A stretch of 64,000 nt of DNA from an uncultured virus (IMG/VR IMGVR_UViG_3300031998_000016) (Duplodnaviria; Heunggongvirae; Uroviricota; Caudoviricetes), in the IMG/VR virus record IMGVR_UViG_3300031998_000016; one strand, written 5' to 3'. A program made the translations under genes and the position numbers. Below the pieces are notes generated by a model. That model searched no databases, was not told the DNA's origin, and was given only the letters and a program-made list of their open reading frames with translations. Below are positions 10,453 through 63,937 of the stretch, piece by piece. Position 1 is the first letter of the stretch. The number at the start of each line of letters is the position of its first letter.

Positions 10453-10465
10453 TTATCTCACCTCA

Positions 10466-38854: not shown

Positions 38855-38858
38855 TAGT

Positions 38859-39254: not shown

Positions 39255-39255
39255 A

Positions 39256-40138: not shown

Positions 40139-40353
40139 TCCAGCGAGGGTTGAACTTCGGTTCAGCCCTCTTTTATTTTTATCCAAAACTGGAAAATTTT
40201 GGCAAAATGCCCGGGCACTTTTCCAGCATTTTCCAATTATGGAAAAATAATATTTTTAAAAATCTCTTGACAAGTGCCGCAAAATGTGATATAATATATA
40301 CATAATAAATCGACAGGTTACAAGTCGTTAAAACCGGAAAGGAATACCAAAAA

Positions 40354-41079
40354 ATGCGTGGAAGAAAAAAGGAAAAATTTATAGTATTAGACGTGGAAGG
40401 AAATTCCACTTGTCTGCCGTACAATATTGGTTATATTGTGGCAGATAATGCCGGCAATATTTACGAAAAAAGGTCAATTGCATTACCTTATGCAGTTTGG
40501 CAGAATCTGTTAAATTCCCTCGAAACTGGTCTGTGTAAAGAAATGCACTTAAAGAACACAAAAGATATTTTAGAGGATTATGAGAATTCTGCTAAAAACA
40601 GGAAGTACAGATGTATAAGCATTGAGAGTTTTTGGATATTATTTACATCTGATATTCAGAAGTACAACATTAAAAAGATGTATGCTTATAACGTTGCCTT
40701 CGATAATGCCGCACTTAGTAGGTTATTTGGTGCAAGGTATGAAATGTTAGGACTGGAAATTCGTGACATCATGGCGGCAGTAGTAAAGACTCGACTGTTA
40801 AATCCTTCCTATTTGGAATTTTGTGACCGTCATGGTTATTTGTCAGAAAAAGGTAATTATAAGTACGGTGCTGAAATAGTGTACCGATATTTGAAGGGCG
40901 AAGCATATGCCAATTTTGAGGAAGAACATACAGGACTTGCCGATGTTATGATAGAATATGAAATTTTGTTATGGGTTCTCAAATCTGGTAAAAAACAGGA
41001 ATGGTCATGCATTTGCGCTTGGAAAAGATTTCAGCAATATGTGGAAGAAACTGGATACCAAAGATGGTTGCCATTTTAA
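40354..41079 (+). CDS. DEDDh (DnaQ-like) 3'-5' exonuclease
   Basis: ExoI IVLDVEG, ExoII AYNVAFD, ExoIII EEHTGLADV. Confidence 0.85.
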   Translation: MRGRKKEKFIVLDVEGNSTCLPYNIGYIVADNAGNIYEKRSIALPYAVWQNLLNSLETGLCKEMHLKNTKDILEDYENSAKNRKYRCISIESFWILFTSDIQKYNIKKMYAYNVAFDNAALSRLFGARYEMLGLEIRDIMAAVVKTRLLNPSYLEFCDRHGYLSEKGNYKYGAEIVYRYLKGEAYANFEEEHTGLADVMIEYEILLWVLKSGKKQEWSCICAWKRFQQYVEETGYQRWLPF

Positions 41080-41287
41080 TGGTAAAGGCGGTAGTTTTCG
41101 GAAGAAGGCTACCGCCCCCATTTTTATGGTAGAACTGGAAAATTTTGGCGAAACGCCCGGGCATTTTGGCATTTAATGGCAGAAAAAATTTTTTAAAAAG
41201 GTATTGACATTACCGCAAAACTATGTTATAATATATACATAAGATAAAGAGAGGTTATAACTCTATAAAACCGGAAAGGAATTAACC

Positions 41288-41512
41288 ATGATAACTGATG
41301 TGCCTATGAAAGCTAATTCAGAAACGATTTTACAATTACAGGAGCAGATTAAAATTTTAAAACGTAATTTGCATTTAATGTGTAAGTTTGGTCCTTGGGA
41401 AGATTGTGGCGATTGTCCTTGCTATGATACAGTTAGTGAAAAATATAACTGTATGATACAAAGTGCCGGCTTAGGTTCGCCAATTCTTTGGAAGAAAGGA
41501 AAAGATTTTTAA
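41288..41512 (+). CDS. Small Cys-rich protein
   Basis: C...CGDCPC...C; own promoter. Confidence 0.6.
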   Translation: MITDVPMKANSETILQLQEQIKILKRNLHLMCKFGPWEDCGDCPCYDTVSEKYNCMIQSAGLGSPILWKKGKDF

Positions 41513-41626
41513 TGGATAAAAGATTTAAAACAAAAATAACTATTGACATTGCCGCGATTATGTGCTATAATATATACATAAGATAAAGACAGGTTATAAG
41601 TCTTAAAAACCGGAAAGGATTTTACT

Positions 41627-41866
41627 ATGAAATTAGATTTTAAGAAAAAGGAAATGACTGGAACAGAAATGGCTATTGGTTGCTTAATTATTTTAGTTGT
41701 CATTGCTCTTACTTATGGTTGTACAGTTCTTATGGTGGGACTTGCTATGTGGTCACTCTGTAAGTTGGGAATTATTGCCGTATGGACGTGGAAACAGGCG
41801 GCATTATGGGCAATTGTTTTGGCAGTTGTTGGTAGTTTCTTTAAGAGTGGTAAAAAGGAGGATTAA
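41627..41866 (+). CDS. Small membrane protein
   Basis: Long hydrophobic segments; own promoter. Confidence 0.7.
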   Translation: MKLDFKKKEMTGTEMAIGCLIILVVIALTYGCTVLMVGLAMWSLCKLGIIAVWTWKQAALWAIVLAVVGSFFKSGKKED

Positions 41867-41869
41867 GTT

Positions 41870-42238
41870 ATGGATAAAAGATTTGAAATATATCCCGTTA
41901 TAGGCATATGGTATTGGGAATCTATGGTAATGGAAGAAATGGGATATGGTAAATATGTAGATTCTCGTAATATATTTGATTGGGATGACTTTTTTGAGGA
42001 AAAAGGTATTGAACACTTTACGGATAGGCATTATCTTGAAAATGTTCTTATTAACTCCGATGATGGTGAAGATTTTGCATATATTGACCGCTCAGGTTAC
42101 ATTGATAAGGGTTATTGTAACGAAAGGTTAGAATATGGTGAAAAAGTTGTTGATATTAAAGAGGAAATTTTTTCTGCGGCAGTAAGACTGTTTGATAAAG
42201 GTTTAGCACCAAAAGAATTTATAGTTCTTTACCGTTAA
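41870..42238 (+). CDS. Hypothetical acidic protein
   Basis: AAGGAGG RBS. Confidence 0.7.
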   Translation: MDKRFEIYPVIGIWYWESMVMEEMGYGKYVDSRNIFDWDDFFEEKGIEHFTDRHYLENVLINSDDGEDFAYIDRSGYIDKGYCNERLEYGEKVVDIKEEIFSAAVRLFDKGLAPKEFIVLYR

Positions 42239-42703
42239 TAAGAAGAATAGAAGAAATAAATTAATTGATAAATTAGAGGATGAAAAGAAAAATGGATGGT
42301 CGTTTTGAATTTTTTGAAAATTATTATGACTTAGAGCATAATCCCGAAACTATGTTTACACTTTTGTACTTTATGGCAAAAGAAATAGAATCTTTACGGC
42401 ATGAACTAAATGAGTTGCGAAGTGACACTGACTTTGAAGAAGAATAAAAGCGCCGCCCGAAAGGGCGGTTTTCTTATATTCCATAATTGGTAAAAATTGG
42501 CGAAACGCCCGGGCACTTTTCCAGTAATTTCCATATCTACCATATTTTCGCGGCGAAAAAATTTTTAAAAAACTATTGACAACTGCCCGCAAATATGGTA
42601 TAATATAATTACAGTAAGGGAGGGATTAAATGACCGCCTTAATACTAATAGGTTTAACTATGATTGCCGGAATTTTGGCAATCGACTAAGAAAGGACTAA
42701 ATT

Positions 42704-43147
42704 ATGGAAAAAGAAATAGTATTTGACATGGACGGCACTCTTAACAATTTTTATGAAGTTGAGGGCTGGCTGGAAGATTTAAGAAATTATTCTGTACGAC
42801 CTTATAAAGATGCGAAGGCAAGGCTCAATCTGTCAAGACTTGCCAAACTTCTCAATAAGTTACAGAAGGATTTAGATTTCACTCTTAAAATCGTTTCATG
42901 GTGTTCAAAGGAAAGTACACCGGAATTTGACAGACGTACAAAAGATGCCAAACTCCAGTGGCTCAGGAAACATATGCCATCTGTAGAATGGGATGAAATC
43001 CTTATTGTACCATACGGCACGCCTAAACACTCTTTAGGCGAAGGCATACTCTTTGACGATAACGAAGAGATTAGAAAAGAATGGGGCAAAGGTGCATACT
43101 CAGAAAAGGAAATCTTTGACATACTCAATGCGATTTTAAGAATGTGA
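42704..43147 (+). CDS. HAD-superfamily phosphatase, 5'(3')-deoxyribonucleotidase-like
   Basis: Motif I VFDMDGTL, K..WL..H, motif IV ILFDD. Confidence 0.8.
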   Translation: MEKEIVFDMDGTLNNFYEVEGWLEDLRNYSVRPYKDAKARLNLSRLAKLLNKLQKDLDFTLKIVSWCSKESTPEFDRRTKDAKLQWLRKHMPSVEWDEILIVPYGTPKHSLGEGILFDDNEEIRKEWGKGAYSEKEIFDILNAILRM

Positions 43148-43551
43148 GGTGGGAGAATATGGAAGGCATAATAGAAGAAGACTGGATAGAATCAGAAGAA
43201 ATGGAATATCTCGGAAAAAGTTTTTGGGAAGAAGGCTTTTATGATAAAAGCGGTAAGAAAATGGAAACAATGGAAGTTCTTGCCGCACTCTTTAAAAAGA
43301 CTATTCAATTAGAAAAGCGAATAGAACAGTTAGAGGAAGAAAATGCCATTTTGAGAGATATTGGTATGTTCGACCTTGACAAAGGACAGGATATTCTCCA
43401 TAATATAACACTTATAAATGGAATTAAATGGAAAAGGGACACTAAATTTACAATTGATAGTGAAAATTGTAATTTTTCTTGTCTTTTATATTATATAAGT
43501 CAATGCATATCAGACAAAAAGTCAGAAGATGAACTCGAAGGATATTATTGA
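43144..43551 (+). CDS. Hypothetical protein
   Basis: Acidic ORF following the HAD gene. Confidence 0.6.
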   Translation: MRWENMEGIIEEDWIESEEMEYLGKSFWEEGFYDKSGKKMETMEVLAALFKKTIQLEKRIEQLEEENAILRDIGMFDLDKGQDILHNITLINGIKWKRDTKFTIDSENCNFSCLLYYISQCISDKKSEDELEGYY

Positions 43552-43745
43552 TAATTTATGCCGCCCGAAAGGGCGGTTTCTTTATATACCAAAACTGGAA
43601 AATTTTGGCGAAACGCCCGGGCAGTTTACCATATTTTGGCGGCGAAAATTTTTTAGAAAAACACTTGACAAACATCATAAACTATGGTATAATATAAACA
43701 TAGATGGAGAGGTGATAACTCCTAAAAACCGGAAAGGATAACCAT

Positions 43746-44117
43746 ATGGTAAAGAATTGTAAATTTAAGTGTGATGACTTTGAAACAGGTTCATTGACAG
43801 AAATGGTGGGTTATATTTTAAGTCAGTGTGATGCTGAAGGAATTATAGCAACTTGGTATTATTTAACCCCTACTATGCCTTGTCTTGTCGCAGAAATTAA
43901 CAACGAAGATAAAATACTTGGTAGTTTCCGCTTAGGTGATTTACTTCTTATGCATCAAAATCACGTACTTTCGGAAGAAATATACAATACAGCTTATGCA
44001 TTTGTTGATAACTATTTAATAGATGAATTACACAGAGCATATAACAGACATGAAGAAATGATAATTACATCAGTAGGCATAAATGATTTTCACATCAACT
44101 TAATATGGGAGGACTAA
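43746..44117 (+). CDS. Hypothetical early protein
   Basis: Own promoter and leader. Confidence 0.7.
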   Translation: MVKNCKFKCDDFETGSLTEMVGYILSQCDAEGIIATWYYLTPTMPCLVAEINNEDKILGSFRLGDLLLMHQNHVLSEEIYNTAYAFVDNYLIDELHRAYNRHEEMIITSVGINDFHINLIWED

Positions 44118-44119
44118 TT

Positions 44120-44632
44120 ATGTATTTTACAATTAACAATTATGTAACAAAAGAGGATGAAAAGATACATACCAAAAGAGGTGCAATAGTAAGAATAAAT
44201 GAACTTCTTACTAACAAAGATATGGCAATCGCTAAACAAATTGTCGAAAACACCATCAACCGCCCTCATGCAGTAACATTTGATAACTTTGCTATACGCT
44301 GTGTAAAAGAATATGAAATAGAAGGTATTGAAGAACAGCTTTTTGAACTTGATGAACTAACGGACGCAATTTTTTATACTGACCAAGATTTAACATTTAA
44401 AATGGCAATAGAATGGTTTGAAAGTACCACTTATGCCAAGGATATGAACGACAATCCACTTGGAATAAATTGGAGAACCATAGTAAAGCGAGATTATGAC
44501 CACGCAACCTTTAACTATGAATATTCTGACAATCTTGTTAATTTGTACATTGATTCCGTAATGTATAAATTTTCCTTAATGTCATCGGGAGATATAGGAA
44601 TATATAACGATTTGAAAATTATTTGCCATTAA
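44120..44632 (+). CDS. Hypothetical protein
   Basis: GGAGG RBS. Confidence 0.7.
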   Translation: MYFTINNYVTKEDEKIHTKRGAIVRINELLTNKDMAIAKQIVENTINRPHAVTFDNFAIRCVKEYEIEGIEEQLFELDELTDAIFYTDQDLTFKMAIEWFESTTYAKDMNDNPLGINWRTIVKRDYDHATFNYEYSDNLVNLYIDSVMYKFSLMSSGDIGIYNDLKIICH

Positions 44633-44835
44633 TTACCCGCCCTTTGGGGCGGTTCCCTTTTATGGTAGAAATGGTAATTTTTGCCTTTTCGCCCGGGCAC
44701 TTTGCCATTAAATACCATAAAAAATTTTTTAGAAAAACTATTGACAAACACTATATTCTATGTTATAATATATACATAAGATAAAACAAAACATGAACAG
44801 GTTCAAGTTCTAAAAACCGGAAAGGAATTACCATT

Positions 44836-45363
44836 ATGTACAAAGTAATTTATAATGACCGTAGCGCTGAAACTTATTCAAACCTTGACAAGTTAGATGA
44901 AGGATTAAGGAAGGTTTTCTCTCACAAACTTGTAAATGATGTTACACTTGCTTTTATGAACGGTAAAGACATTTATAGCGGCAGATTTTTTGATGTTGAA
45001 CATTATGTCGGTTATACCTATGACGGCAACTATTTTACAACCTTATGGCAGTTAGCACAGGCACTTTCCAAAGAGGTTGACCGTGATACGAAGGTTGAAT
45101 GGTTTATTCAAAATGTCGGTATTAGCGCACGTAAAGATAATGGAGATGAATTTGACCTTCCGTGGTATGATATGATTGAGGATGATTATGACCATGAAGA
45201 ATACAGCGGTCATTTAGCATCAGAAATTGACAATGCGGTTGCGGAAGAAATTGAAGATGCACTGGAAAAATGTAAGGATTTGGTAGAAGGTGGCTGTTTT
45301 ACTTTCAGTTTTTGGGAATCAGATTTCTGTATTGAAATTGAAGAGGAAGGGAATGAGGACTAA
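44836..45363 (+). CDS. Hypothetical acidic early protein
   Basis: Own promoter and leader. Confidence 0.7.
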   Translation: MYKVIYNDRSAETYSNLDKLDEGLRKVFSHKLVNDVTLAFMNGKDIYSGRFFDVEHYVGYTYDGNYFTTLWQLAQALSKEVDRDTKVEWFIQNVGISARKDNGDEFDLPWYDMIEDDYDHEEYSGHLASEIDNAVAEEIEDALEKCKDLVEGGCFTFSFWESDFCIEIEEEGNED

Positions 45364-45626
45364 TGTATTTTAAGGGAACATATAGTTGCGGCTATTGTGG
45401 TTGTGACAATATATACTACTTTAAAGCAAATAGTGAAGATGATGTTTGCGTTTATATGGCAGAAGGACTTTATGACTATGCCGCAGAGTATATAGATGTT
45501 GAATATTCAGAAGGTTACACCGATGATGATTTTGACAACTTTCTTTACGATTGCGGTTTTGACGTTGAGGAAATTACTGACATGGATGATTTGGAAGGTG
45601 AAGACATAATAGACCTTACCATGTAA
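45363..45626 (+). CDS. Very acidic small protein
   Basis: TAATG coupling; CGYCGC motif. Confidence 0.65.
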   Translation: MYFKGTYSCGYCGCDNIYYFKANSEDDVCVYMAEGLYDYAAEYIDVEYSEGYTDDDFDNFLYDCGFDVEEITDMDDLEGEDIIDLTM

Positions 45627-46454
45627 AATATTGCCACTCCTTCGGGAGTGGTTTTATTTTGCCATCTGACTGGTAAATTTTGGCGAATTGCCCGGGCAAT
45701 TTACCACATTCTTCCATTTCTAACAAAATCTTCCATTCCAACCATAATAATCCACCCTACCATAATTTGCCACTTTTCCATGCTTCTACCAACACACCCG
45801 CCACACCACGTATTTACGTACTCTATAGGAGCTGCAAAGGAGCTGCATCCCGCCCACATTTTTTTCGCGCCGCCAAGCCACGCATCTATGTCGTCCGCCA
45901 ACCCCATAAAATCGGCGTCCATCCGGGCAGGCGGGGTAGGGGTCTCCCCGGTCCGGGCTTATGGGGTCCCTATAGGAGCTGCAAAGGAGCTGCGTCGGCC
46001 GGGCATAAAAATAGCCGCCTTATATGAGCTACAAAGGAGCTACATCTAAGACGGACAAAAATTTTTTGAGTAGGGGTAAAGGAATTCTACTTTTTAAATG
46101 AGAAAAAAAACGACTGAATTAGTAAAATTTTTGACTATTTTTATAGAAATTTCACAGCTAATCTCGCGCCACGAAATTTTTTATTTGAATCGCGGCACAT
46201 AAAATCTACATTTAGAAAAAAACCCTAAAAAGGTCCACGGTAAAATTTTACAGTTCTGGAAAAATTTTCCATTTGAGAGAAAAAGATAATGTTACTGTGA
46301 GAATTTCCAGGAAATTATTTGGAATTTACTAGGGATTGTTTGGTTATGGGAATAATTATTCTCTTTAATTTTGGGAATACAGTAGGAAATAAGAAATTGC
46401 CCAAAAATGTGGGCGAAATACGGTTTGGAATATAGTCAACCCACGTTACCAATT

Positions 46455-47115
46455 CTAACTTAATTTGCACTATATATATATTATATATTAATTATACTTA
46501 TCTATGCCTGTTGCTGCTAGGGCTCGCTAGCAAAAATAATCCAACTTTTACTAACTCTCCAAAACTCGCCAAAAATCGTTCGGGAATACGGAGGGTAACG
46601 GTAGAAAACGTGTTTTTACGGTTTTGCACAGTAAACCCACGTTGGTTTTTACTACTACTACTACTACTAATATTTCTGCGGCTACGCCGTTTAGGTTGCT
46701 ACTACTCCTTCTTTCGCCGCGATTTCTAATACTACATAATTCGCTACGCAATTCGCACTATTTATATATAATTATATTATTACTACTACTACTACTACCC
46801 TTTCTTTCTTACTACTACTACGCAATTCGCACAATATATAATATATATAATAATAATATATATAATTATACTACTACTACTTACTCGTTACTACTACTAC
46901 TAGCTAAACTAACTCGCACTATATATAATATAATAATTATACTACCACTACTACTCTAATCCTCTCTACTACCACTACCCTAATACTTTTACTATTACTA
47001 CTAACTTAACTCGCACAATATAATATATATCTATTACTACTACTACCCCTACTTACTACTACTACTTACCCCCTACCAAAATTAAACTTAACCCGCACAA
47101 TATATATAATATATA
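46455..47115. repeat. Low-complexity array: (ACT)n tracts alternating with AA(C/T)TCGCAC + (AT)n units
   Basis: About six TCGCAC-like cores near 46465, 46753, 46826, 46914, 47011, 47092, each followed by an AT-only run; plus strand nearly G-free. Confidence 0.85.
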
Positions 47116-47310
47116 CAGCTAACTCGTGCTTCGCACTCGCACGCTGCCTCCCCTTTTATACTATTCGCTTCGCTCATAGTATAAAAGGATGTGCTATTTT
47201 ACTTTCTCTGTTACTTCGCCGCGAAATCACAGTGAAATTTCTTGCCGCGAAATCCCCGAATACCGCCCCTATAGAGAAATAGCGGCCAGGTGTACTACCC
47301 AGCCGCCATT

Positions 47311-48627
47311 TTAGAAACCTATTAAATTGTCGAAACGGCTTTCGTATGTCTTAAATTTGCCGTTGTAGAAGTCAGCAACCGCTTCGTTGTTAAAGCGTGG
47401 GAGACCCCCTTTAATTCTGAGATAAAGATTCTCAATCTTACGTGCTCGGCTAAGACCAACGTAAAGAAGTGTACGGTTTTCGTTCGCGCCATCAAAGAAT
47501 CCTTTATCGTACAGGAAGTTTACCTTATCGAATGTCTGACCCTGAGATTTGTGTACTGTGATTGCCCAAGCTAACTTAAGTGGTAACTGCTTAATACCCC
47601 CGATTGTCTGAGTTTCACCGTCTTCAAAAATCTGAGTCTTAAAATCATACTGAGGAACATCAACTTCTTCGCCGCTATCCAGCTTAACTCTGACCCCCGT
47701 AATATTTAACTGAGTAATGTGTCCCATGTCGCCATTACAATAACCATCTGTTGGGTTGTTAATTGTCAGCATAACTCTTGCGCCAACCTTTAACTTAAGC
47801 ATACGAGGAATTTCCTTGTCATACTCGCCCCAATAAAGAGCCTTGTAAAGCTTTTCCGGTGAATCAATCTTATCAAGCTCCTGTGAATTGATAGCGTTTA
47901 CAACCTTGTTTGTACAAGCAAGGATTACTGCATCTTTCATAGGAGCATTTTTCTGTGACTGTGCAAGATAAGCCTTGTCATCTGATGTAAGAGTATTGCG
48001 GCTAAGATTGTAGAGAGCGGTACTAAATGCCTGGTCGTCCTGTCTCATTGCCTGTGTAAGAGTGCAAGTCTGGAAGTTAAAATCTCTCCAGATGTGTGAG
48101 TGGAAGCAATGGAACTGACTTCTATCAAGTTCTGGTGAATAGCCGCGATGGTCAGCAATCTTAATAGTTTCATCAGTTACTACAGGCGGCAACTGGAAGA
48201 AGTCACCGATAAGGATAATCTGACAATTTGGATTGAACTCCTTAATTTCATTACCTATTGTATTGAATAAGAGGAAGTCCAACATAGACGCTTCGTCAAC
48301 CACAAGGCTATCAGTATCCTTTAACCAATCATTGTCCTTGGTTGCTGTGCCATCAGTCACGGAAAGATGAAACTGGTGATGGAGAGTAAACCCCCCTATA
48401 CTTCTTGCCGCAACACCAGTGGTAGCACAAACAATTGTTCTCTTGCCGCGACGTTCAAATGCTTTGATTATGCGATTTACAAGAAATGTCTTTCCTGTTC
48501 CAGCCGGGCCAGTAATAAACATATTCTTGCCGCTCATTGCCATATCAAAAAACTGCTTCTGTTTTTCGTTGAGGGCATTATAGTCTTCCTGTTCTTCAAA
48601 TCTTTCTTTTTCTGTAAGTTCTATCAT
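47311..48627 (-). CDS. PIF1/RecD-like superfamily 1B DNA helicase
   Basis: ITGPAGTGKT, VVDEASM, IGDFFQLPPV, LAWAITVHKSQGQT, YVGLSRAR. Confidence 0.92.
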   Translation of the reverse strand: MIELTEKERFEEQEDYNALNEKQKQFFDMAMSGKNMFITGPAGTGKTFLVNRIIKAFERRGKRTIVCATTGVAARSIGGFTLHHQFHLSVTDGTATKDNDWLKDTDSLVVDEASMLDFLLFNTIGNEIKEFNPNCQIILIGDFFQLPPVVTDETIKIADHRGYSPELDRSQFHCFHSHIWRDFNFQTCTLTQAMRQDDQAFSTALYNLSRNTLTSDDKAYLAQSQKNAPMKDAVILACTNKVVNAINSQELDKIDSPEKLYKALYWGEYDKEIPRMLKLKVGARVMLTINNPTDGYCNGDMGHITQLNITGVRVKLDSGEEVDVPQYDFKTQIFEDGETQTIGGIKQLPLKLAWAITVHKSQGQTFDKVNFLYDKGFFDGANENRTLLYVGLSRARKIENLYLRIKGGLPRFNNEAVADFYNGKFKTYESRFDNLIGF

Positions 48628-48947
48628 TCATCTTCCTCCATTGGTCTGCCAAATTCATTAAAGGTATATGTGCTCTTTTGAACTTGGGTAATGTATTCGT
48701 ACTTTTCGAGTTCTTTCATGGCATCTCGGTAACTGGACTCCGAAATGCCGATACATTGTTTGATGTATGCTGGGCCTATCGCCATATCTCTTGTTCCATA
48801 GGAACACAAAAACATCCATAGTTTAAATGCGGAGTAAGTTAACCTTTTCGCCGCGATAATCCAGTTTGTTCTATCTATTACCATGAAGTTTTCGTGAGGA
48901 AGAGTGCGGCGAATTTGGATTGTTTTCTAGTTTGGAAATAGTGCCAT
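48624..48947 (-). CDS. Winged-helix DNA-binding protein, replication-initiator-like (107 aa, one TAG)
   Basis: GAGGTG RBS + ATG 48947: MALFPN(Q)KTIQI...AFKLWMFL...IGISESSYRDAMKELEKYEYI; ATGA overlap with helicase. Confidence 0.65.
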
Positions 48948-48957
48948 TCAACTCACC

Positions 48958-51900
48958 TCAGATATTGAAGAAACATCTTATGCCGGCAACTCCATCACAC
49001 GATGTAATTGAGATAGCCATTGGGTCTGATTCATCAATGTAATAGTTTGTTTTGTAGGTTTCGTAGATAAAGTTTCTTGCATCTACAATTGATGGGAACT
49101 CATCTACTTTCTTTCCGTAGAGAACTGGCTGTGAACCTTTGCCGCAAATCTTGTGATAGAAAAATCTTTCAAGTGTCATGTAGTAGCCCCCCTTAAGCAA
49201 GTTCAGCATAGAAACAAAGAACAACATCTTCAACCGCAAAACCCTCAAATGTCGGGTCATCAGCAGTTTCATCGAGCATATCAAATGCGTTAACGTCAAA
49301 TCCATATTCGTCAAGATAGCCAATTGCGGCATCCTTTGCTTCATCAAATGTATTGAATAATTTTGCTGGTGTTTCATCAATTAAAAATTCTACAACGTAC
49401 ATAAGTTTTCCTCCTTAATCATTTTCGCTTTCGTTTACTTCCCACACATCAACTACGTTAATTTTACTTGCATCTACTCCGAATTCCATTGCAAAGTTAC
49501 GTTTTGCAGCTTCGATATTAAGGAGAGTGTTGCCGCCCATGAAGTAGGTCTTTGTGATGTCCGGCTTATAGTTATCAGAGAAGCCAGCCTTTGATGGTGT
49601 GGTGAGTGTTATCTTAAATTCTTTCATTTGTAATCCTCCTTAGACATTGGATGAAGCGAGTAAGTTTTCGTTTGAGTCGTACATTTCAATGGTTTCGCCG
49701 TTTACTTTCATGAAACGTTCAACCTTTTTGTCGTTAACTATTTCTGATACTCTGTACCAAATGCCAAGCTGTTCAGCCGCAAAAATCATTGCAATCATGC
49801 CCCGGTACGAGAGTTTGTAAAATTTCTTGTTATCTAAGTCATCAAATATAAATACTCTTTCTTCTACCATTTTTATTTCTTCCTTTCTTGATTTTCTATA
49901 TATATTATAACACAAGTTAAGGTGAAAGTCAATGCCTACCAGATATTTCCATTAGCGGTTAAAGGTATTTTCAATTGGTTCAGCGCTAATAACTACGCCA
50001 GCAAAAATTGCTGAACCATTGGTATCAATTATATGTTTAAGATTATCTTCGATATAATTGAAGATATTGTCAGAGAAATCTGTTGTGTAGTGGTCATCAG
50101 GGAAAAGAAGATTGCCTAGTTCTCCGTCTAAAAAGACAGGTATTTCACGAACATGATAATTGAAAAAATCTCTTGCCGCAGCTTCATAAGGACAATAATC
50201 GTAAATATAATGAAATATTTCCTCAAACGGACCGGACATTCCAAGCTTACCATTTTGATAAAGGTAATATTCCTCACACTCTTCAACTATTAAGTCGTTT
50301 ATAAGAAAATTAACTCCATTGGTCTTTAAATACATTTCAATGAGTCCATTCTTCTTTTCTTCAAGCCATTTGTTAATAATCCACTGGTTCTTTTCAGAAT
50401 TTGCCGCCGCAACCATTTGGTCATTAACTTCAATATCAAATAAGACTTCATCTAACTTGTCAAATATGATGTTGTTTTTACTTACGGTAACAACATATTC
50501 CATAGCTTCTTCAAGGGTTTTTGCTTCTGAACGTGGACATGTAGCCTTATGTCCACAAATTGCATTATATATCTTATACTTCTTCATAGTTATCTTCCTC
50601 CTCAACTTCTAAGATTGTGTAGTCACCCCACTCACATGAGCCATAGTGTTCAATTTCGTAGATAAGGTCATCAGTACGATAATCAATTTCATCGTTTAAG
50701 AGCATATCTAAGTCATCGTCTGAAGCTAAGTTCTTTACGATGGTTGATATATGCATTTTGCCGACAATCGGTAAGTCTACTGGTTCATAGATGTCATCAA
50801 GGCTTTCAATAACATCGTCTATAGTCATATGTTCATCCACAAAATCTCTAAGGTCACTATAGAAAGAAAATGTGTCATCTACTGTATTTATTACTTTATA
50901 CATATTATTCATCCTCCTGAGCAATTCTTTTAATTGAAATAAATTCATGAGCGTTTTCACCAATGTAAATGCTTAATTCCTCGCCATATTCCTTAAATTC
51001 CTTTTCCTCAGCCGGGATATATGAAAGAGAAGCACCAGTGCCAGCTTCGATATAAAACTGAGAGTAGAGTTCAAAGCCGGTTCTTATATCTCTGCTACCG
51101 TATTCGTCCTGTTCGGAATCTATAAAGGCTTCCATGAATACCTCACCAAGTCTGCTGAGTAAATCGCGGCGAGCCTTTACATATGAACTAAAAATCTTTG
51201 GCTTGATAACTTCAAGACCTTCGAATGTTGAAATTTTCTGTACAAGATACATATGTACCCCTCCTTATTTCCAATTGTTTATGTCGATTAGTTTGAGTAA
51301 GTCGTTGAGAAACTGAATTGTCTTCTGACGATTAAGGTTCTTGCCTTTTTCTATCGGGTAAAGGAACTGCTGAATCATTGAGTTTGCGTCGTCAATTGTG
51401 TTTCGCATTTCCTCATTTTCTGCTTCATAGAAAGCGGCATCGCTATCAATTTCATCAATGAGTTGAGATTTTGTGAGTTCTGCTACATCAAGCATTTCCT
51501 CTATCTCTGCCGCGAAATCCGGAGAAACCTTATCTGATATAACATCAAGGTAATCGCGGCGAGTTACAAGATGTAGGTATTTATCATTTCCGATATTTGT
51601 CATATTAAACCTCTCTCCTTTGCATCGAGTGGATAGTTCTTGATGTATGCTTCCTTGTTTTCCTTGATTTTGCCGGCTCTTAACATTCTACCGAATCTCT
51701 TTGCTGCTCTACCAACGATAAGCGGGTTGCGGTAAGAGTTTCTGAACATTCTCATAGAGTCTTCAATGAAACAGTGTCCGTAGTTGATGTATTCAATCTG
51801 CTGGTCACACATGAATCTTGCCTGTGCGCTCCATGACTTTGGTCTGTAGTTTTTCATAGTTAATCGTCCTTTCTTAGTCGCCTATTCTGTCTTCCTTGTA

Positions 51901-52137
51901 ATGCTGTTCTGTATGATAATGTTTATCAACTTTGTGGACTTCACAATCTGGATAGTGTTCTTTAAACCACGCTCTCGCTTCTTTATCAGTTAAGCGAGTT
52001 TCGGCTGGGATATAAGCCGCATAATCAAGCTTTCTGTTGAAGTCTTCATCCGTGTTGCTGAAGTAAACTGTGTTATCAGCTTTTATGTCAAAGTAATAAA
52101 AAATTGTGCCATAAAGTCTATAGAAGTTAATTACCAT
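48958..52137 (-). CDS. Run of ten small hypothetical genes (48958-49179, 49193-49402, 49415-49627, 49640-49870, 49952-50587, 50574-50903, 50905-51252, 51265-51603, 51600-51857, 51874-52137)
   Basis: Tightly packed, RBS-led, TAA/TGA-terminated ORFs; promoters near 49905-49932 and 52172-52200. Confidence 0.65.
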
Positions 52138-52246
52138 TTTTATTTTCCTCTCTCTCTTAACTTTCTATATATATTATAACACAGTTTTTAAAAAAAGTAA
52201 AGGCCTACCAGATATTTCCAGCAGACCTTTTTAACTTTCTTCATCT

Positions 52247-55200
52247 TTAAAATCCGGAACTTTCTAATGTGATAAGGCCTTTTTCATTAGCCTTTTGAGC
52301 AATCCATTCTTTTGCCGCTCCCCCTTCGGTAGGAGCTTTTTCCATAGAAGTAAATCCTCCCGATATTATATAAACCTCTGGACCATCAGTTTTGATTACA
52401 TGGCCCACGGAAAATTCAAATTTTTCTTTAACGTTACAATCACCAGACAAAGGTTCTCCTTCCTGTTTTACGTAGTCTATCTTACCTAAAACATAATGTT
52501 TCTCACCAACAAGATGAAGCTCTGCCCTGAAACGACCTTTATAAACGACAAAAGGTTTGTCGCAAGTTCTTATAGGAAATTCTTGTATCCATATCTCGTC
52601 ATATGTGTATAAAAACCGAAGTTTAATATTTTCAGCGTCTTCTTCAGTAGGACAAACACCAATGACAATACGAGTTCCTCTCTCATCATTCCAGTCTTCT
52701 CCACTTACTACCCATACTTTATTTTCTATTTCCATTATTCTTCCTCCTTTTCTGCGAACTCAATATCGAACGGTGCCTTACCATTGAAGTGCTCTAGCAT
52801 TATATCTGCTAATGACTTGTCTTTTGCAAGGCAATTAAGGTACTGAGCTTCACTTATTACAACTTCGCCGCAAAATTTAAAACTATCGAAGCTAAAATCA
52901 TTTACTTCTACTCCATAGTTTACTGTGCCTACTGGTTTTTCAGTCACACCGCTATGAACGACTGCATTATCTAGAATTATTAATTTGTGTTCACCGTCAG
53001 GTTTAGCGCAAACTGGTGATAAATCACCATAATCCTCTAAGGAAACAAACACTCTAACATTCTGCTCATATTTCTTTACAAAATAATGATTGCCAAGATA
53101 AATCTCAATATCCCAAACAACTGCATTATTTACAAGACTCTGAATACAGTCATTCATATTGTCTTCAAGGTCTTCTATTGTAAGTGTATCATATTCTAAA
53201 GGAATATCACGCTCGTTATCGTACCAATCCATAAATTCTCTAAACTGAAGGTACTTACGAACATAGTTGAAAAGTTCACTTTCGTCTATATTACTTTCTA
53301 TAAGGAGCTCTTCGTTTTTGTTGGTTATTTTAACTATTTTGTATTTTATCATTATTAATCCTTCCTTTGACCAAAATTTATGGCAAAACCATTTTCTTTT
53401 ATATTATCATTAAATTTATCACGAAAAATTATTTCAGTAGAACTTAGACAAGGAAATGAATGTTCTTTAATACAATTCCATTCTTCCTCGGTAAATATAA
53501 CATATGCAGTAAAGTTAATGTCGGAAAGAGGCTTTCCTTTCTCATGAATTATTTTATAATCATATTTTTCTTCGCTGCCAGTTATAATGATTTCTTCTTC
53601 GCGAATCTGCGCCCAGCCAGTAATTGATAAAAAGTCAGGACTTTCGATTGATGCATCTGAATCCCACAATGTAAGCTTGTGACCTATTTCTTTCATCTCA
53701 ATGCCATAAACCGACTCTCCCAACTTTATTCGTTCTATTATTCGGTCTACATATTCTTTAAAACAACTTTCCATTTCCAATATAGATAAATCAGTTCTTA
53801 CATCTTCATATTCTCTGCCATAGTCATCTTCACTAATGTAGACTTTATGCAGTTTTGATGCTACGTCTTCCCATATGGCATGGGTTTTTATATGCTGTCT
53901 TACAGCTTCTTCTGACTCGAAAATCTGGTTTTCATATGTAAAATATAAATTTCTCATTCCTCTTCCTCCTTGGTTTTTCTATTTTTCCATGAAGCAAAAG
54001 CAACTCTATAAAGTAAATTATCTTCTACAAAATACGCATGGGAGAAAATATTTTTTAAATCAGTTTCTTTAAGACTCTCTATAAAGACTTCTTCATTTAT
54101 TAAAGCAGAGCCAGTAAAATTGCCGCGAATATCTAATGTACCTTGGCATTTGCCACAAGATTCAACTTCTTCTTCTGTTAAAAAGACATCTTCAACTATC
54201 AGGTCTATTGAGTCTTCAACATCATCAAGTCTTATTACAGAAGAAGGCCCTATTTTTATAATGGTTGCTTTAGCATTTGATATGGTCATTTTCTTAAATA
54301 CCCGACACTTAGTAAGTCCCCACTCTCCCCTTTCATACATTTCGTTTACGTATTTTTCAAAATATTCCATCCATGTTGCAATAGACATATCTTCGTCTGC
54401 CACCCTATATTCGCCATAAGCATTTTCTGCCTCCATTGATAAGGCGTAATCTCCACCATTATCAAAGTATTCTCTTGCTTTCATAAGAGAGGTTGCTGAT
54501 TTGATATAATCTTTTATTTTTTCCTTTGTATCATATATGTTGCCATAGCCATCTTTTCCTATATATTTCATTATAATCTCTCCTCACTAAATTCAACTTT
54601 AAAATTATCATGAAATTGACCAAATACTGTCGCGAATATGTCGGCATTTGAAAGACCTTTATCAACATATGCTTTCCATTGGCTTTCTGTAAAGAACACT
54701 TCACCATAGAAACTAAAATTCACAAGGTCATTTACACTATCATGTCCTAAAATGTACGTAGGTTCTTCTACAAAAGGAGTCTTAACAAGATTCACCTCGC
54801 AAGGTAAATATATCTTTAATTTATTGGCGCTAATAGCTTCTGCCATATCAGCTCTTACAACGATTTTATAACAATCTTCTGCCACCTCTATATAAAAGCT
54901 ATTGTCTGGCATACAAAACTTGCCTGTTTCTATTAACTTTCCAAGAACCATTTTACAGTATAAATCAAAGTAATATTCAACATCGTTGTAGTTAAAAATC
55001 TTACTACATGGATACTGTTCGTTGCCGTCATGGTCAAGAACCGCTCTATACATATCTTCAAGAAAGACATTATATGTTAAATAATCATCAACTACTGCAT
55101 ACCAATTATCATATTCACCGGCCTTTTCGTAGTCACCATAAGAATCACGTTCATATACTACATAATTTGCATTAATCATTATTATCAACTCCTTACATAC

Positions 55201-56322
55201 ACGCAAATACCAGGGTCTTCTTTCGCCGCGATTTCATTAAAACAACATTCAAAAGTGCCGGCAAGATTATCTGTATCTATATCATTAACATCTATATAGA
55301 CCCAAGCACTAAAGAATCTACCGTTCGGGCCGCCCTCTATTTCAAAGTCATAGCGGTTTTCGCGGCTCTTAGGCATTTCTCCCATAATAGTGTTTGGGTC
55401 GAAATTTATGTCTTCTATGCTATTAAGAAAGACATCAATCATGCCGGATTCTCCCTGAGTAAAATCCCAATTTACATTTTCAATACTTGCACATATTACC
55501 ATTATTCTACCTCTTTCGCACGTAACATTTGACTTAAAACATCTATAATATTTTCCATAGTCGTTACAAACGGAAACTGAAATGTTTCTGCTGGGATGAT
55601 ATGGTCTAAATTAGTTGCCTTTCCTACCACTTCATTTACATAAAATGAGCAATATAATTTTCCATCCCTAAAGTCTTCTTTTTTAGAACCCATAAAGTGG
55701 TCTATATTTAAAACTCCATCATCAATTAAAAAAGTAACAAATCTATGCTTTCTAGGAAGTTTGTCTTTTTCTTCAATCTCTCTCATGGATACATGAGGGA
55801 AGAATTCTTCATAGCAAGGAAAGGTGATTGTTGTTTGTTTACGATTTAATTTAATTGGAAGGCCATTTATAACCACTAAAAAAAGTCTACCTTTGCTCAT
55901 ACCATTCTCTCCTTAATCTCTTTAAGAGTATTAACAACCATTGAGAAAAATTCAAACTCTTCTCTTATGTATTCCGGCTTGCCCCAAAAGACCAAATCTG
56001 CATAAGGAAAAACACCCTTTTCAAGTTTTGTCTTGTGATGCTCTGCTTCGGCTTTAAAATTCATAATGTATTCATCTATGTTTTCCGTAGTAAGAACAAT
56101 AGTCATATCGCGCCAATTAGCGAATCGAGTCTGAGCAACTTCACTAATTCCACAGTCTATGCCGTCTATAAAGTAATGACGTTCATAACAAGGCTCATAG
56201 CGAAGTGTGTCTGGGTTTGGATAAACACAATCAACAAAATCCTTTTCGCTTAAAACGTGTACATTTTCCATTGCAATACCTTCGTGGTATTCCTTAACTC
56301 TTTCAAATACAATAGCGTTCAT
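52247..56322 (-). CDS. Run of eight coupled acidic hypothetical genes (52247-52735, 52735-53352, 53355-53957, 53954-54571, 54571-55206, 55185-55502, 55502-55900, 55897-56322)
   Basis: Overlapping or adjacent stop/start codons; four adjacent ~200-aa genes look distantly paralogous; promoter near 56368-56395. Confidence 0.7.
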
Positions 56323-60714: not shown

Positions 60715-61344
60715 TTATCCCCAACTCCATTTGTATCCATAAGCACTTTTCCTTTTACCTCTACAAACTGAAGAGATTTGAGAAGAAGCACCTTTAGATG
60801 TTGGAGTTATTTTTCCTAATGCTCTCGCAGCCGCTAAAGCCGACGGAAAAGATTGTATATATTCACCATCAAGAGAATATTGATTTACAACTTTACCACA
60901 AACTCTTTGACTAACTTGGGCAGAAGAAATTATATCTACATCTCTTTCTTTAAGAATTAAATGAACACTATCGGCAGAAATATTCATAATTCTCGCGACC
61001 TCATTACAATTTAATACTTCATTATAAGTAGCAACTACCAAATCCCTATCTATATAAGGTTTTCCGTCGCCGCCTATTGTAGCGTTGTAACCATTTTTGA
61101 AAGAACCATAATATTCAATCCAATATTTTTCTCTTTCCTCTGGAACAGAAGTTTCCTCAATTAATTCTATTGCGAAATTTTCAATTCCATATTTTCTCAT
61201 GGCGTCATATAAAGGTCTTTTTTCACACCGTTCTTTTTGACTATCTCTACAATGTTCTTCAAACCTTTTCTAAATAGAATTATAAGTTTTACCTATATAA
61301 AGTTTGCCATTGATAAGATTTGTGATTTTATAAATGTATGCCAA
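60715..61344 (-). CDS. Free-standing GIY-YIG homing endonuclease with NUMOD-type C-terminus (209 aa, one TAG)
   Basis: AAGGAG RBS + TTG: MAYIYKITNLINGKLYIGKTYNSI(Q)KRFEEH...AMRKYG..NF...GYN.T.GG...VCRGKRKSAYGYKW. Confidence 0.85.
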
Positions 61345-61608: not shown

Positions 61609-61968
61609 TTAATCTTCAAAATTAACTTCCTTAATAACTATAGAAATGTAATTTGAAACATAAAACTCAGCATAACCAAAATCTTCCGGAAGTTCTCTTG
61701 GAAGTTCCTTTAGTCTTTCGCCATCTTTGCCGAGAAGATAATATATATCACCTTCAAGATTTTCCTTTAGCTTAACGCCGCCGCAATCATTAGTAGTATC
61801 TCCATAGAGAATTTCTTCCACAAGCACATCAAGTACACTATCCTTAAAAAATCTCCATGCATTGCCGCGATTCCTAAAGAGATAAGTTTCTAATGGAGCG
61901 CCAATAGAGTCAATAAATTCAAGAGTTACTAAATACATATTATTTCTCCTTACTAATTGATGGTTCAT
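61609..61968 (-). CDS. Hypothetical protein
   Basis: Acidic ORF; true start probably the internal MYLVTL. Confidence 0.6.
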   Translation of the reverse strand: MNHQLVRRNNMYLVTLEFIDSIGAPLETYLFRNRGNAWRFFKDSVLDVLVEEILYGDTTNDCGGVKLKENLEGDIYYLLGKDGERLKELPRELPEDFGYAEFYVSNYISIVIKEVNFED

Positions 61969-62191
61969 CCATTGATGCTAAAATACATCTTACTTTGTCC
62001 TGAGAAGTTGAGGAAATTGCCTTAACACCAACTACCTTAACTCTTGTACCATTACATACCTTTTTAGTCATATCTTCTGAAACCATTCGGATAATTGCAC
62101 CAGCTTTTGGAACACCACCGACAACTTCAAAATCATATGTCTTGCCGGAAAAATCATTAAACTTGTTTCTAAACTGTACTGAAATATACAT
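61940..62191 (-). CDS. Hypothetical protein
   Basis: GAAAGGA RBS; promoter at ~62223-62251. Confidence 0.65.
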   Translation of the reverse strand: MYISVQFRNKFNDFSGKTYDFEVVGGVPKAGAIIRMVSEDMTKKVCNGTRVKVVGVKAISSTSQDKVRCILASMDEPSISKEK

Positions 62192-62272
62192 TTAAATCTT
62201 CCTTTCTTGATTTTCTATATATATTATAACATAAGTTTATAGAAAAGTCAATATTTTATAAATTTTTCCAAA

Positions 62273-62414
62273 TGCCCCCACCCAGAGTTGAACTGGGATA
62301 GACAGATTAGAGCAAAAAATGAGAATCGAACTCATATTTCAAACCATTCGGCTCAAAGTTTTACATTAAACTATTTTCACAAAGTCTGCTATTCTACCAT
62401 TGAATTATGGGAGC
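62273..62414 (-). tRNA. Interrupted tRNA (likely Arg-UCU) with a ~70-nt tRNA-like insert in the anticodon loop
   Basis: Outer acceptor GCTCCCA/TGGGGGC, D arm, GCAGA/TCTGT stem and T arm intact; insert has its own acceptor, D and T arms. Confidence 0.75.
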
Positions 62415-62700
62415 GTCATCCGTGTGTGAGCCTGATGTTCCTCTAACGACAACACGGTGCCGGGGCTATCCCGCTATCATCAGCTATTGCATATCCTCGG
62501 TACTTATAGGCCGCGACCTATAAGACTTAATTGCTCTCCGCCATTCTCGGCTGTACTACTGGTATTGCTACTCAAAGGGATTTTCATCATATTTCTACGA
62601 TTCAAACCATAATAACCTGAAGCATCATTATGGCGGCAATGCACTTGCCGGGCAATAATTTCATACATTGTACTTCTGTACTCCATTATTGCACTTATGT

Positions 62701-62784
62701 CCGGTCCACCCAAAGCGGATTTGAACCACTGTTTCCAAGTCTGTATCTCTTGGCGTGCTAACCACTACACTATTCGGCACCCGG
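62701..62784 (-). ncRNA. tRNA-like RNA / pseudo-tRNA
   Basis: Good D arm and T arm, 9-nt anticodon loop AGATACAGA, mismatched acceptor stem. Confidence 0.55.
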
Positions 62785-62790
62785 CCCTAG

Positions 62791-62863
62791 TGCCCTCAGA
62801 AGGGATTGAACCTTCGACACCCGCCTTATCATGACGGTGCTCTGCCAACTGAGCTATGAGGGC
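62791..62863 (-). tRNA. tRNA-Ile(GAU)
   Basis: CCGTC-ATGATAA-GGCGG. Confidence 0.9.
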
Positions 62864-62866
62864 ATA

Positions 62867-62938
62867 TGTGAGATAGGAGAGTTGAACTCCCGTTTTTGCA
62901 TTGGCAATGCAATGTACTAACCACTATACGAATCCCAC
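62867..62938 (-). tRNA. tRNA-Gly(GCC)
   Basis: TTGCA-TTGCCAA-TGCAA. Confidence 0.9.
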
Positions 62939-63078
62939 ATTAATGTCAGTTTTACTTCGCTTCTTTTTGTTTAACGAGGTGTTTTCCGCAAGCCACATAT
63001 CTTTCGCAAACTTTCGTTTCCTATTCGCCGGTGGTAGTTGAAACTGACAAAATCCGTGTTAACCCCTCGATTGGTTCT

Positions 63079-63681
63079 ATCTTGAAAACCTAATAAAAAA
63101 TACATTGTTGGTTTTTGTTCGCCATACTCCTACAACGCTACGCATTATTCAGCCACAGTGACAATAAGTCTGAGCCTTAAAGCCGTCGCTCTAAAGCTTC
63201 TTACCGCAGTTCCGAAGAACCCAAGCACTGAGAGGATTTGTTTACCTCCAACTTTCACCCATCATTCAGATTAATTTCCTTAAATTATTCTAGAATTAAT
63301 CGAGCCTTGGGCTACTCGCACCACCATCGGGTTTATTCCAGCTTTTTCAAGCTGTTCTCGGCTCAACTCCATTATTTTGCGTTCCCAGCATTTACTCACA
63401 TCTTGCGGATGTGGTCTACGGGGTTATTCTCTCACAGAGAGCGTCTATTGTTGGAGCAACCAGTTTAGGTGTGCCATTGCTCACGTTGTCCTTGTGCCGC
63501 GACTTCTCTCTTGATGGCTGGTATACCATCTTGTTCCTCAGCCTTCCGACATCAGAAAAGAAACCCTGTCAAGGTATCCCTTGACCCGACCTCTCAGCAG
63601 TTCCATCGCGCCCATGCAGAGATGATTAATCCCTCATTTTAACACATGGTTACAACATACTTTTTATTAAGTTTTCAAGAT
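63079..63681 (-). ncRNA. ROOL-like large structured ncRNA (~600 nt)
   Basis: Long terminal helix ATCTTGAAAACTTAATAAAAA / TTTTTATTAGGTTTTCAAGAT; internal ACAATAGACGCTC..GAGAATAA, CGAGTAGC, CTGAATG..GTGAAAGTT, GCTGAATAA segments as I recall from ROOL RNAs; embedded in tRNA array. Confidence 0.8.
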
Positions 63682-63685
63682 AAAG

Positions 63686-63759
63686 TCGGCAAGGTGGGAT
63701 TCGAACCCACAAAATCTCGGTTCTTAGCCGAGCACGTATGCCAGTTCCATCACATGCCG
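63686..63759 (-). tRNA. tRNA-Leu(AAG), short variable region
   Basis: CTCGG-CTAAGAA-CCGAG; Leu-type D arm; A discriminator. Confidence 0.8.
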
Positions 63760-63937
63760 ATTTATAGGCAATGTAGCGCGCGCTACTACTATCTCGGTTG
63801 CCGCCAAGTCTTAACCTTTCACCTTAACACATAGGTTTGAATATGTTCGCGCCTGTTCTCGTTTACAGGGACGTTAATGCACTATGCCAAAAATCAACGA
63901 ACCTCATGTCGCAGCTTTGAAACATAAATACATTAAG

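Follow-up and report, generated by a model that had tools for sequence, protein, structure and literature searches.

A phage tRNA-Lys(UUU) gene interrupted in its anticodon loop by a tRNA-like element, and a possible enzymatic route for removal of the insert

Background

In bacteria, introns of transfer RNA (tRNA) genes are self-splicing group I introns, and enzymatic cutting and rejoining of tRNA belongs to archaea and eukaryotes, as outlined in the accessible part of PMC3400036. The same part describes a repair system of phage T4 in which PrrC cuts the anticodon loop of tRNA-Lys, the damage is repaired by Pnkp and Rnl1, and Rnl1 reseals the loop. Closest to the case reported here are the tRNA introns of the Lak megaphages (Devoto et al. 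2019), which the accessible part of PMC6784885 calls "enigmatic" and one of which "itself may encode a tRNA". An annotation made beforehand from sequence alone (the first-pass annotation) had pointed to such tRNA-in-intron predictions from Lak phages, and this precedent does exist.

Here, we describe a tRNA-Lys(UUU) gene whose anticodon loop holds a tRNA-like element. It lies on the minus strand of a 64,000-nt stretch of DNA (hereafter the window) from the uncultured Caudoviricetes virus IMGVR_UViG_3300031998_000016, the window being part of a 77.5-kb viral record (G000) that CheckV rates as 43% complete. As in the Lak phages, a phage tRNA is split in the anticodon loop by a sequence with a tRNA-like fold; at this locus, the insert consists of that fold and two further nucleotides.

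Results and discussion

Anatomy of the nested gene

Default ARAGORN predicts 13 tRNAs in the window, none of them at this locus, which is recovered as a single gene only in intron mode. Its parts are as follows.

62273-62414, minus strand (G000 10378-10519): nested gene, called by ARAGORN in intron mode as a single 142-nt gene made of a 71-nt tRNA and a 71-nt intron.
62381-62414, minus strand: 5' exon of tRNA-Lys(UUU) as delimited by ARAGORN in intron mode, with the acceptor 5' strand, D arm, anticodon-stem 5' strand and loop nt 32-35 (CTTT).
62312-62380, minus strand: inner tRNA-like element of 69 nt, with a 7-bp acceptor stem, D arm, 7-bp hairpin with a 4-nt loop, 5-bp T stem and T loop TTCGATT.
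62310-62311, minus strand: insert tail of 2 nt, a discriminator-like T followed by C (G and C in alleles G001 and L204, see below), not part of the mature loop and missing from the insert-less allele L227.
62273-62309, minus strand: 3' exon of tRNA-Lys(UUU), with loop nt 36-38 (TAA), anticodon-stem 3' strand, 4-nt variable loop, T arm, acceptor 3' strand and discriminator A; CCA is not encoded.

The letters given for the minus strand in the first-pass annotation match the record exactly, and its estimate of about 71 nt for the removed segment was correct. Taken alone, the insert matches the Rfam tRNA family RF00005 over 62311-62380 (minus strand) with 36.7 bits (gathering threshold 29; E = 4.6e-4 for the whole window). 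With relaxed thresholds ARAGORN draws it as a cloverleaf in which the place of the anticodon arm is taken by the 7-bp hairpin, whose loop is GAAT (4 nt here, 3 nt in L204), and no 5-bp stem with a 7-nt anticodon loop is present. With its acceptor and T arm, to which a D arm is added, the insert mimics a tRNA top half, and an anticodon loop is lacking; the Rfam match and the intron call both bear out the earlier description of a tRNA-like fold devoid of an anticodon loop and nested in the anticodon loop of another tRNA. The minimum free energy fold of the 142 nt contains the inner acceptor, D, hairpin and T helices together with the outer acceptor and T arms and five outer anticodon-stem pairs; the outer D stem is not drawn. 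This fold has an energy of -36.8 kcal/mol (z = -2.04), and 5 of 200 shuffled sequences fold equally well.

Identity of the outer tRNA and point of insertion

The outer gene is a tRNA-Lys(UUU) gene. This identity and the exact junction are both given by a metagenome contig, L227, in which the insert is absent and which has the same upstream and downstream flanks. Its uninterrupted tRNA (Rfam tRNA, 61.6 bits) has the anticodon loop CTTTTAA and exons identical to those of G001 (= L002), a complete phage relative of 180.6 kb with terminal repeats that was found via its Ro protein (82% identity). The 5' exon of the window equals that of L227 except for pair-preserving changes in stems. When L227 is compared with the insert-bearing alleles, a slide of one base in either direction fails to reproduce the sequences, and the insertion is therefore uniquely placed between anticodon positions 35 and 36, the 71 nt corresponding to the 69-nt element plus NC. 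The junctions had earlier been regarded as ambiguous, with insert-less alleles in relatives proposed as a check; such an allele exists, and it settles them.

The loop CTTTTAA and the tRNA repertoire of these phages overturn the previous assignment to Arg-UCU, which had assumed a loop CTTCTAA. All 25 Rfam tRNA matches of the complete G001 genome fall in one island and, with ARAGORN and Rfam combined, the tRNAs of this phage cover 19 amino acids plus a tRNA with a CUA anticodon; a separate Arg(tct) is present, and without the nested gene Lys would be the sole amino acid not covered. Similarly, G000 has an Arg(tct) and a Lys(ctt) but no second Lys(ttt). Eight other viral tRNAs share positions 8-27 with the outer gene, five of which are Lys and none Arg, and of 50 metagenome loci that have its T arm, 10 or more are Lys(UUU) genes without interruption. 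The Arg(UCU) reading is ruled out by the uninterrupted Lys allele, by the separate Arg(tct) of G000 and G001 and by the absence of Arg among those eight tRNAs. Similarity of the outer-exon body to 101 phage tRNAs was uninformative, the top score being a Gln. The two Lys codons are in frequent use, AAG ranking third and AAA sixth in the 41 long open reading frames (ORFs) of the record. There are strong grounds for concluding that the insert must leave the RNA if this tRNA is to decode.

Independent alleles and selection on the split gene

The insert is present in three separately assembled contigs (G000, G001 and L204), each with substitutions of its own, which contradicts the mis-assembly of two tRNA genes that had been named as a possible refutation. 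These three alleles and the insert-less L227 make up a four-row alignment in which 153 of 153 cells of the nested structure hold a standard pair, as against 37-53% in controls with slid partners. Three pairs have changed on both sides, all in outer stems (one in the acceptor stem, two in the anticodon stem), and one-sided changes that keep the pairing affect two further outer pairs and two inner pairs; the 23 inner pairs are kept in all three insert-bearing alleles. Comparison of the window with G001 shows eight differences in the outer exons, all in stems, all preserving pairing and none in loops, and three in the insert, two of them pair-preserving and the third being the discriminator-like base. 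Since the outer differences keep pairing and three pairs changed on both sides, the split gene appears to have been selected as a tRNA while bearing the insert; with an alignment of four sequences the evidence is suggestive and not statistical, the observed covariation score being reached in 5 of 500 shuffle trials.

The same data bear on two trivial explanations, namely an assembly artefact joining two tRNA genes or a self-splicing ribozyme intron, which together we regard as hardly conceivable. An artefact would not be expected to recur in three contigs with their own substitutions. As for a ribozyme, neither a group I intron nor a small ribozyme was found at the site with Rfam at E values up to 5, RF00028 included, and 71 nt is far below group I size, as the first-pass annotation had rightly argued. 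The positive control was a 198-nt intron in a tRNA-Leu gene, detected with 58.3 bits in G002, a complete phage of 166.7 kb that looks unrelated and that also carries a ROOL RNA.

Presence and absence of the insert are precisely polymorphic among near-identical phages (L227 versus G001 and L204). In exact-pattern scans of the viral collection, the 5' exon stretch had no match and the 3' exon was found only in G001.

Other nested tRNA genes share a 5' boundary

Running ARAGORN in intron mode on the pattern loci produced many false "introns" from tandem tRNAs, and only calls checked by hand were retained. In L003, a 4.6-kb contig of the same phage group, the insert in a tRNA-Asp(GUC) consists of a tRNA-like element of 66 nt and then ACCA, and it lies between positions 35 and 36; the anticodon arm of this inner element is a hairpin with a GAGA loop. 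An uninterrupted Asp allele with the loop CTGTCTA occurs in G001 and in the window, and the G001 Asp exons are identical to those of L003. In G002, which has Thr(ggt) and Thr(cgt) but no second Thr(tgt), a tRNA-Thr(UGU) carries, between positions 34 and 35, a tRNA-like element of 112 nt and then TCCA. In G003, a 6.7-kb fragment, a genuine tRNA-Asn(GUU) (71.8 bits) lies between positions 36 and 37 of a tRNA-Lys(UUU); ARAGORN labels this gene "Trp(cca)" by reading as anticodon the CCA that is the 3' end of the tRNA-Asn, and five ordinary viral tRNA-Lys genes have the same 30 nt as G003 followed by AA and the stem.

With the alleles of the window, G001 and L204, this makes six nested genes, and in all six the 5' junction coincides with position +1 of the inner element, which without exception has acceptor and T stems of 7 bp and 5 bp and a T loop of 7 nt. 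When the three CCA-ended inner elements (those of L003 Asp, G002 Thr and G003 Lys) are removed from +1 to A76, exactly a 7-nt loop with a sensible anticodon is left and, for the Asp gene of L003, the uninterrupted allele of G001 is restored. The anticodon arm is degenerate in five of the six inner elements. RNase P, RNase Z and the CCA-adding enzyme recognise the acceptor/T-arm top half of tRNA, and such decay of the bottom half is what would be expected if only the top half is recognised. A D-arm motif common to three of the degenerate inner elements suggests that these form one family. No inner element is an intact tRNA of the same identity as its host gene: the anticodon is absent in the window, G001, L204, L003 and G002, and G003 has an Asn inside a Lys. 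Exact-match scans of the viral collection found the window-type inner element only in G001 and the L003 inner element in L003 alone, neither of them as a free-standing copy or within another tRNA. In Bacillus phage G, the 41.6 kb around the Ro gene contain no nested tRNA, the sole ARAGORN intron call being a false join.

The wider set of nested genes also has a bearing on whether the unspliced 142-nt double cloverleaf might itself be functional, for instance as a decoy for an anticodon nuclease or as a ligand of the phage Ro protein. Its host tRNA-Lys is the classical target of PrrC (according to the accessible part of PMC3400036), a Ro/TROVE gene and a ROOL RNA are found in the same island, and both cloverleaves are conserved. 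Nevertheless, the same gene exists as a plain tRNA in L227, inserts of this kind are also present in tRNAs for Asp and Thr, Rfam (E up to 5) detected no Y RNA at the site, and G001 would be left without a Lys decoder of its own. We consider such a role most improbable. The tie to a Ro/Y module that had been proposed comes down to co-location, the TROVE gene lying ~4 kb from the nested tRNA.

Besides its nested gene, G002 (L127, G002 38000-56000) has the 198-nt group I intron in tRNA-Leu(UAA) mentioned above (Rfam Intron_gpI) and shorter inserts of 49 nt in Thr(GGU) and 47 nt in Tyr(GUA), the coordinates of these three being L127 6760-7035, 5554-5676 and 9435-9563. The tRNA array of G003 (L128) has sub-threshold Rfam matches at 5382-5451 and 4993-5061, to twister-P1 (47.2 bits, gathering 67.2) and to a YrlA Y RNA-like sequence (36.2 bits, gathering 69). 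On a 206-kb viral contig (L135), a tRNA anticodon stem GCGAT/ATCGC encloses ~73 nt that are not tRNA-like in look.

A possible excision and ligation route

These features are best accommodated by a route in which the insert is a tRNA-mimic intron, cut at its 5' end by the host RNase P and at its 3' end by a tRNA 3'-end nuclease, the exons being sealed by Rnl1; in our estimation the arguments for and against this route are about evenly balanced. It is also the simplest one, as it would draw for the cuts on enzymes common to all bacteria. The host RNase P would cut at the inner +1 and produce a 5' exon ending in CUUU with a 3'-OH. An RNase Z-like tRNA 3'-end endonuclease would then cut two bases beyond the inner acceptor stem, that is after C74, and release a 3' exon starting with UAA and bearing a 5'-phosphate. 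The outer cloverleaf would keep the two exons together while the T4 Rnl1-family ligase of the phage would seal the nick. RNase P and RNase Z leave 3'-OH and 5'-phosphate ends. Such ends are not joined by RtcB; they need no healing and are what ATP-dependent ligases of the kind represented by T4 Rnl1 and Rnl2 act on.

The search of the genome for RNA ligases that the first-pass annotation had called for was productive, the candidate being located in G000:

G000:C1:454-1587, just outside the window: T4 Rnl1-family RNA ligase ORF (PF09511, 69.5 bits; phrog_562, 6e-52).

In the alignment of this ORF to T4 Rnl1 (2c5u), KIDG stands opposite KEDG of motif I (KxDG); this alignment spans residues 33-262 only, and that of the PHROG profile residues 28-364. 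In G001, the Rnl1 gene is located inside the tRNA island, and an Rnl2-family ligase is also encoded. None of the five phage records examined encodes an RtcB (PF01139), an EndA-type endonuclease (PF01974), an RNase Z-like enzyme or a CCA-adding enzyme. The RtcB-like ligase invoked earlier has to be abandoned, in view of its absence from these records, of the nature of RNase P/RNase Z ends and of the Rnl1-family ligase that is encoded instead. The other half of that proposal, an excision of the RNase P/Z type, stands on its 5' side, where the junction equals the inner +1 in all six genes and the 7 + 5 bp stack is kept; its 3' side fares less well, a cut after C74 not being the canonical RNase Z site.

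Several points weigh against this route, most of them concerning the 3' end. According to the accessible part of PMC7479834, RNase Z leaves a 3'-OH on the tRNA and canonically cuts after position 73, the discriminator, with a C at 74 reported to suppress the cut, and the Thermotoga maritima enzyme cuts directly after an encoded CCA. The window-type insert ends in NC rather than NCCA and the 3' cut is needed after C74, for which no precedent was found; the canonical cut after the discriminator would give an 8-nt loop. The introns of the Lak phages (Table S6 of PMC6784885, as we read this part of the source) likewise end 1-3 nt beyond the 3' strand of the mini-tRNA acceptor, which means that the oddity of the 3' end recurs. 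As to the enzymes, G002 has no Rnl1, only a ligase of the PF09414 family, and the lack of phage genes for RNase Z-like or CCA-adding enzymes means that all nucleases are assumed to be those of the host. Contigs of four metatranscriptome runs (X19, X20, X23 and X24), compared with window 61900-63800, cover ROOL-RNA relatives and a little flanking sequence and leave the nested tRNA uncovered. Finally, G001 encodes end-healing enzymes, so that its ligase could be accounted for by tRNA repair alone, and with these enzymes a nuclease leaving cyclic-phosphate ends would be equally workable.

That last point can be developed into an alternative in which a dedicated endonuclease, not recognised as such and of phage or host origin, leaves a 2',3'-cyclic phosphate and a 5'-OH that are healed by the phage kinase/phosphoesterase and sealed by Rnl1 or the Rnl2-family ligase, the tRNA shape serving as a handle for the nuclease or having some other function. 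The RNA-repair island located by the tRNAs of G001 (L125/L126, G001 118000-157999) would provide a full heal-and-seal kit, comprising Rnl1, an Rnl2-family ligase, an AAA_33 kinase with an HD domain, a cREC protein, a Thg1-like protein and a metallophosphatase (Metallophos). The 3' cut site moreover varies (NC here, NCCA elsewhere), unlike that of canonical RNase Z, and most of the phage ORFs have no family match. Against it, the 5' junction is the inner +1 in six of six genes and the 12-bp top half is kept while the bottom half decays, which is how RNase P and the 3'-end enzymes read a tRNA; furthermore, a nuclease of the EndA type is absent from all five records. We rate this alternative as rather unlikely.

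A more speculative idea, to which we attach very little probability, is that the inserts are captured RNAs, with DNA boundaries equal to processed tRNA ends (5' at +1; 3' at -NCCA or incompletely tailed -NC). The tRNA-repair ligase of the phage would have sealed a free tRNA or tRNA-like RNA into an anticodon loop nicked by a nuclease and the chimera would have been copied back into the phage genome, the same end-processing enzymes and Rnl1 now running the reverse reaction as protein-enzyme splicing in bacteria.

Homing endonuclease genes and mobility of the insert

Free-standing homing endonuclease genes in the tRNA cluster probably aid the spread or persistence of inserts of this kind. One candidate lies in the window:

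60718-61200, minus strand: GIY-YIG-type homing-endonuclease-like ORF of 161 aa (NUMOD1, 29.7 bits with Pfam; phrog_7168, phrog_314, phrog_5123).

This ORF is located ~1.1 kb downstream of the nested tRNA and also occurs in the tRNA clusters of G001 and L003. It matches phrog_7168 only from profile position 50 onwards and has a short N-terminus; a role as mobility factor is possible. In L003, a gene for a 196-aa HNH endonuclease (1310-1900) ends 3 nt before the nested Asp gene, and both the HNH gene and the Asp insert, present together in L003, are missing in G001. The insert-less contig L227 is itself a mosaic, with window-like flanks and G001-like exons. This pattern fits endonuclease-driven exchange within tRNA clusters, and the insert may protect the endonuclease target site. 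In L003, the 196-aa HNH gene is itself preceded by a tRNA of anticodon GTT (L003:1184-1274, 89-91 nt) that has a long extra arm.

Mobility of this kind also raises the question of whether the insert has simply inactivated the gene, by a selfish or accidental event (homing-endonuclease-associated or tRNA-cassette insertion), with no splicing and at most the release of the inner RNA and of tRNA halves. The precise presence/absence polymorphism, the joint absence of the HNH gene and the insert in G001, the GIY-YIG-like ORF near the insert of the window and the lack of metatranscriptome contigs over the nested tRNA are all in keeping with this view. It is at odds with the eight substitutions that separate the outer exons of the window and G001, all of which keep pairing and none of which lies in a loop, and with the tRNA set of G001, a complete phage with tRNAs for the other 19 amino acids in which the nested gene would be the sole Lys tRNA. 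Nor does the inner element provide a replacement copy, having no anticodon here and being an Asn inside a Lys in G003. On this evidence, inactivation appears distinctly unlikely.

The phage and its tRNA island

By its Ro protein, the closest cultured phage is Bacillus phage G (52.9%), which hints at a Firmicute host. The nested tRNA is part of a tRNA island that also holds a ROOL RNA, the Ro/TROVE protein gene and the homing-endonuclease-like ORF, and most ORFs of the phage have no family match. The ROOL RNA was detected with Rfam at 63090-63673 (minus strand, 293 bits), and relatives of it at 90-95% identity occur as contigs in all four ruminant metatranscriptome runs examined. One contig of X20 joins position 63682 back to 63095, giving a circular or tandem look that an assembly effect could explain.

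Between a tRNA-Val and the nested tRNA, the segment 62415-62705 (minus strand) is ~290 nt long, non-coding and relatively G+C-rich. Conservation in G001, L204 and L227 is seen at both ends, the middle being variable; a hairpin TTATAGG..CCTATAA lies within the segment, and Rfam gave no match at E up to 5. Within the Ro/ROOL island, this segment is a small-RNA candidate. A consensus-like promoter (TTGACT, 17 nt, TATAAT) follows the nested tRNA directly, at 62223-62251 (minus strand), and heads the next protein-coding genes. A blastn search against GenBank phages gave a sole match, to an AT-rich promoter-like stretch of Staphylococcus phages that corresponds to part of this promoter (77%).

tRNAs with a CUA anticodon, labelled "Pyl" by ARAGORN, are found at L125:2616-2690 (G001) and L127:9570-9659 (G002). 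They are possible amber suppressors, so that read-through of TAG may occur in part of these phages. Another recurrent phage tRNA type is marked by TAT within the anticodon loop and by a long extra arm that is conserved (..GCAACAGATAATTGG..), and is found on many unrelated viral contigs:

L018, L028, L029, L036, L044, L048, L093, L108, L113, L120 and others: TAT-loop long-arm tRNA type.

Comparison with known systems

In phages, tRNA clusters are known to carry free-standing homing endonucleases such as SegB of T4, and an intron devoid of endonuclease can home in collaboration with a neighbouring nuclease gene. The HNH and GIY-YIG-type genes among the tRNAs and the mosaic flanks recall these cases, with the difference that the GIY-YIG-like ORF of the window is N-terminally short and 1.1 kb away. 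tRNA-like elements released by RNase P and RNase Z are known from the mascRNA of MALAT1 and the circularly permuted tRNA genes of Cyanidioschyzon. There too, a tRNA-shaped module directs the cuts at both ends, but these systems belong to eukaryotes, in which no functional tRNA is made by rejoining the flanks.

Group I introns, for example those of tRNA-Leu(UAA), occupy the same region of the tRNA; here the insert has 71 nt and no catalytic core. Archaeal and eukaryal splicing, which relies on the bulge-helix-bulge (BHB) motif, EndA and RtcB or Trl1 (accessible part of PMC3400036), likewise uses separate nuclease and ligase on an intron in or near the anticodon loop, and differs in that neither EndA nor RtcB is encoded in the five phage records. 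A BHB motif is ruled out at this locus, since a single internal loop (4 nt and 5 nt), bounded by the outer anticodon stem and the inner acceptor stem, contains both junctions. With the T4 repair of tRNA-Lys, the locus has in common the tRNA species, a break in the anticodon loop and a phage-encoded ligase of the Rnl1 family. In T4, however, the break is damage inflicted by a defence nuclease of the host, and its ends need healing, whereas here it would be programmed and RNase P/Z-type ends would need none.

The Lak megaphage introns remain the nearest likeness. In the accessible part of PMC6784885, they too are phage tRNA introns in the anticodon loop with a tRNA-like fold (an Rfam tRNA in the Thr-TGT intron), alleles with and without intron exist, a tail extends beyond the mini-tRNA acceptor (e.g. 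"AC" in Phe, Table S6 as we read it), and a mechanism is not explained. They differ, on the same reading of Table S6, in that the mini-tRNA is preceded by an additional 5' hairpin and an A-rich linker, and their 5' junction is consequently not the +1. Hairpin and linker are absent here, the insert beginning directly with the inner acceptor stem, and the locus belongs to another phage lineage (~180 kb, rumen, CCA-less tRNAs) with Lys as the host tRNA. Beyond the Lak papers, the literature searched, which did not extend to subscription journals, contained nothing on a tRNA nested in a tRNA or on removal of a phage tRNA intron by RNase P/Z and a ligase.

The proposed route has not yet been demonstrated in bacteria or their viruses. 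If true, it would represent a third way of splicing tRNA and would give the "RNA repair" ligases of phages a routine biosynthetic job. The exact junction, the shared boundary rule, the selection on the split gene and the phage-encoded Rnl1 now make this question directly testable, on a locus that is the simplest and an unusually clean form of a kind first noticed in 2019, its insert consisting of a tRNA top half alone.

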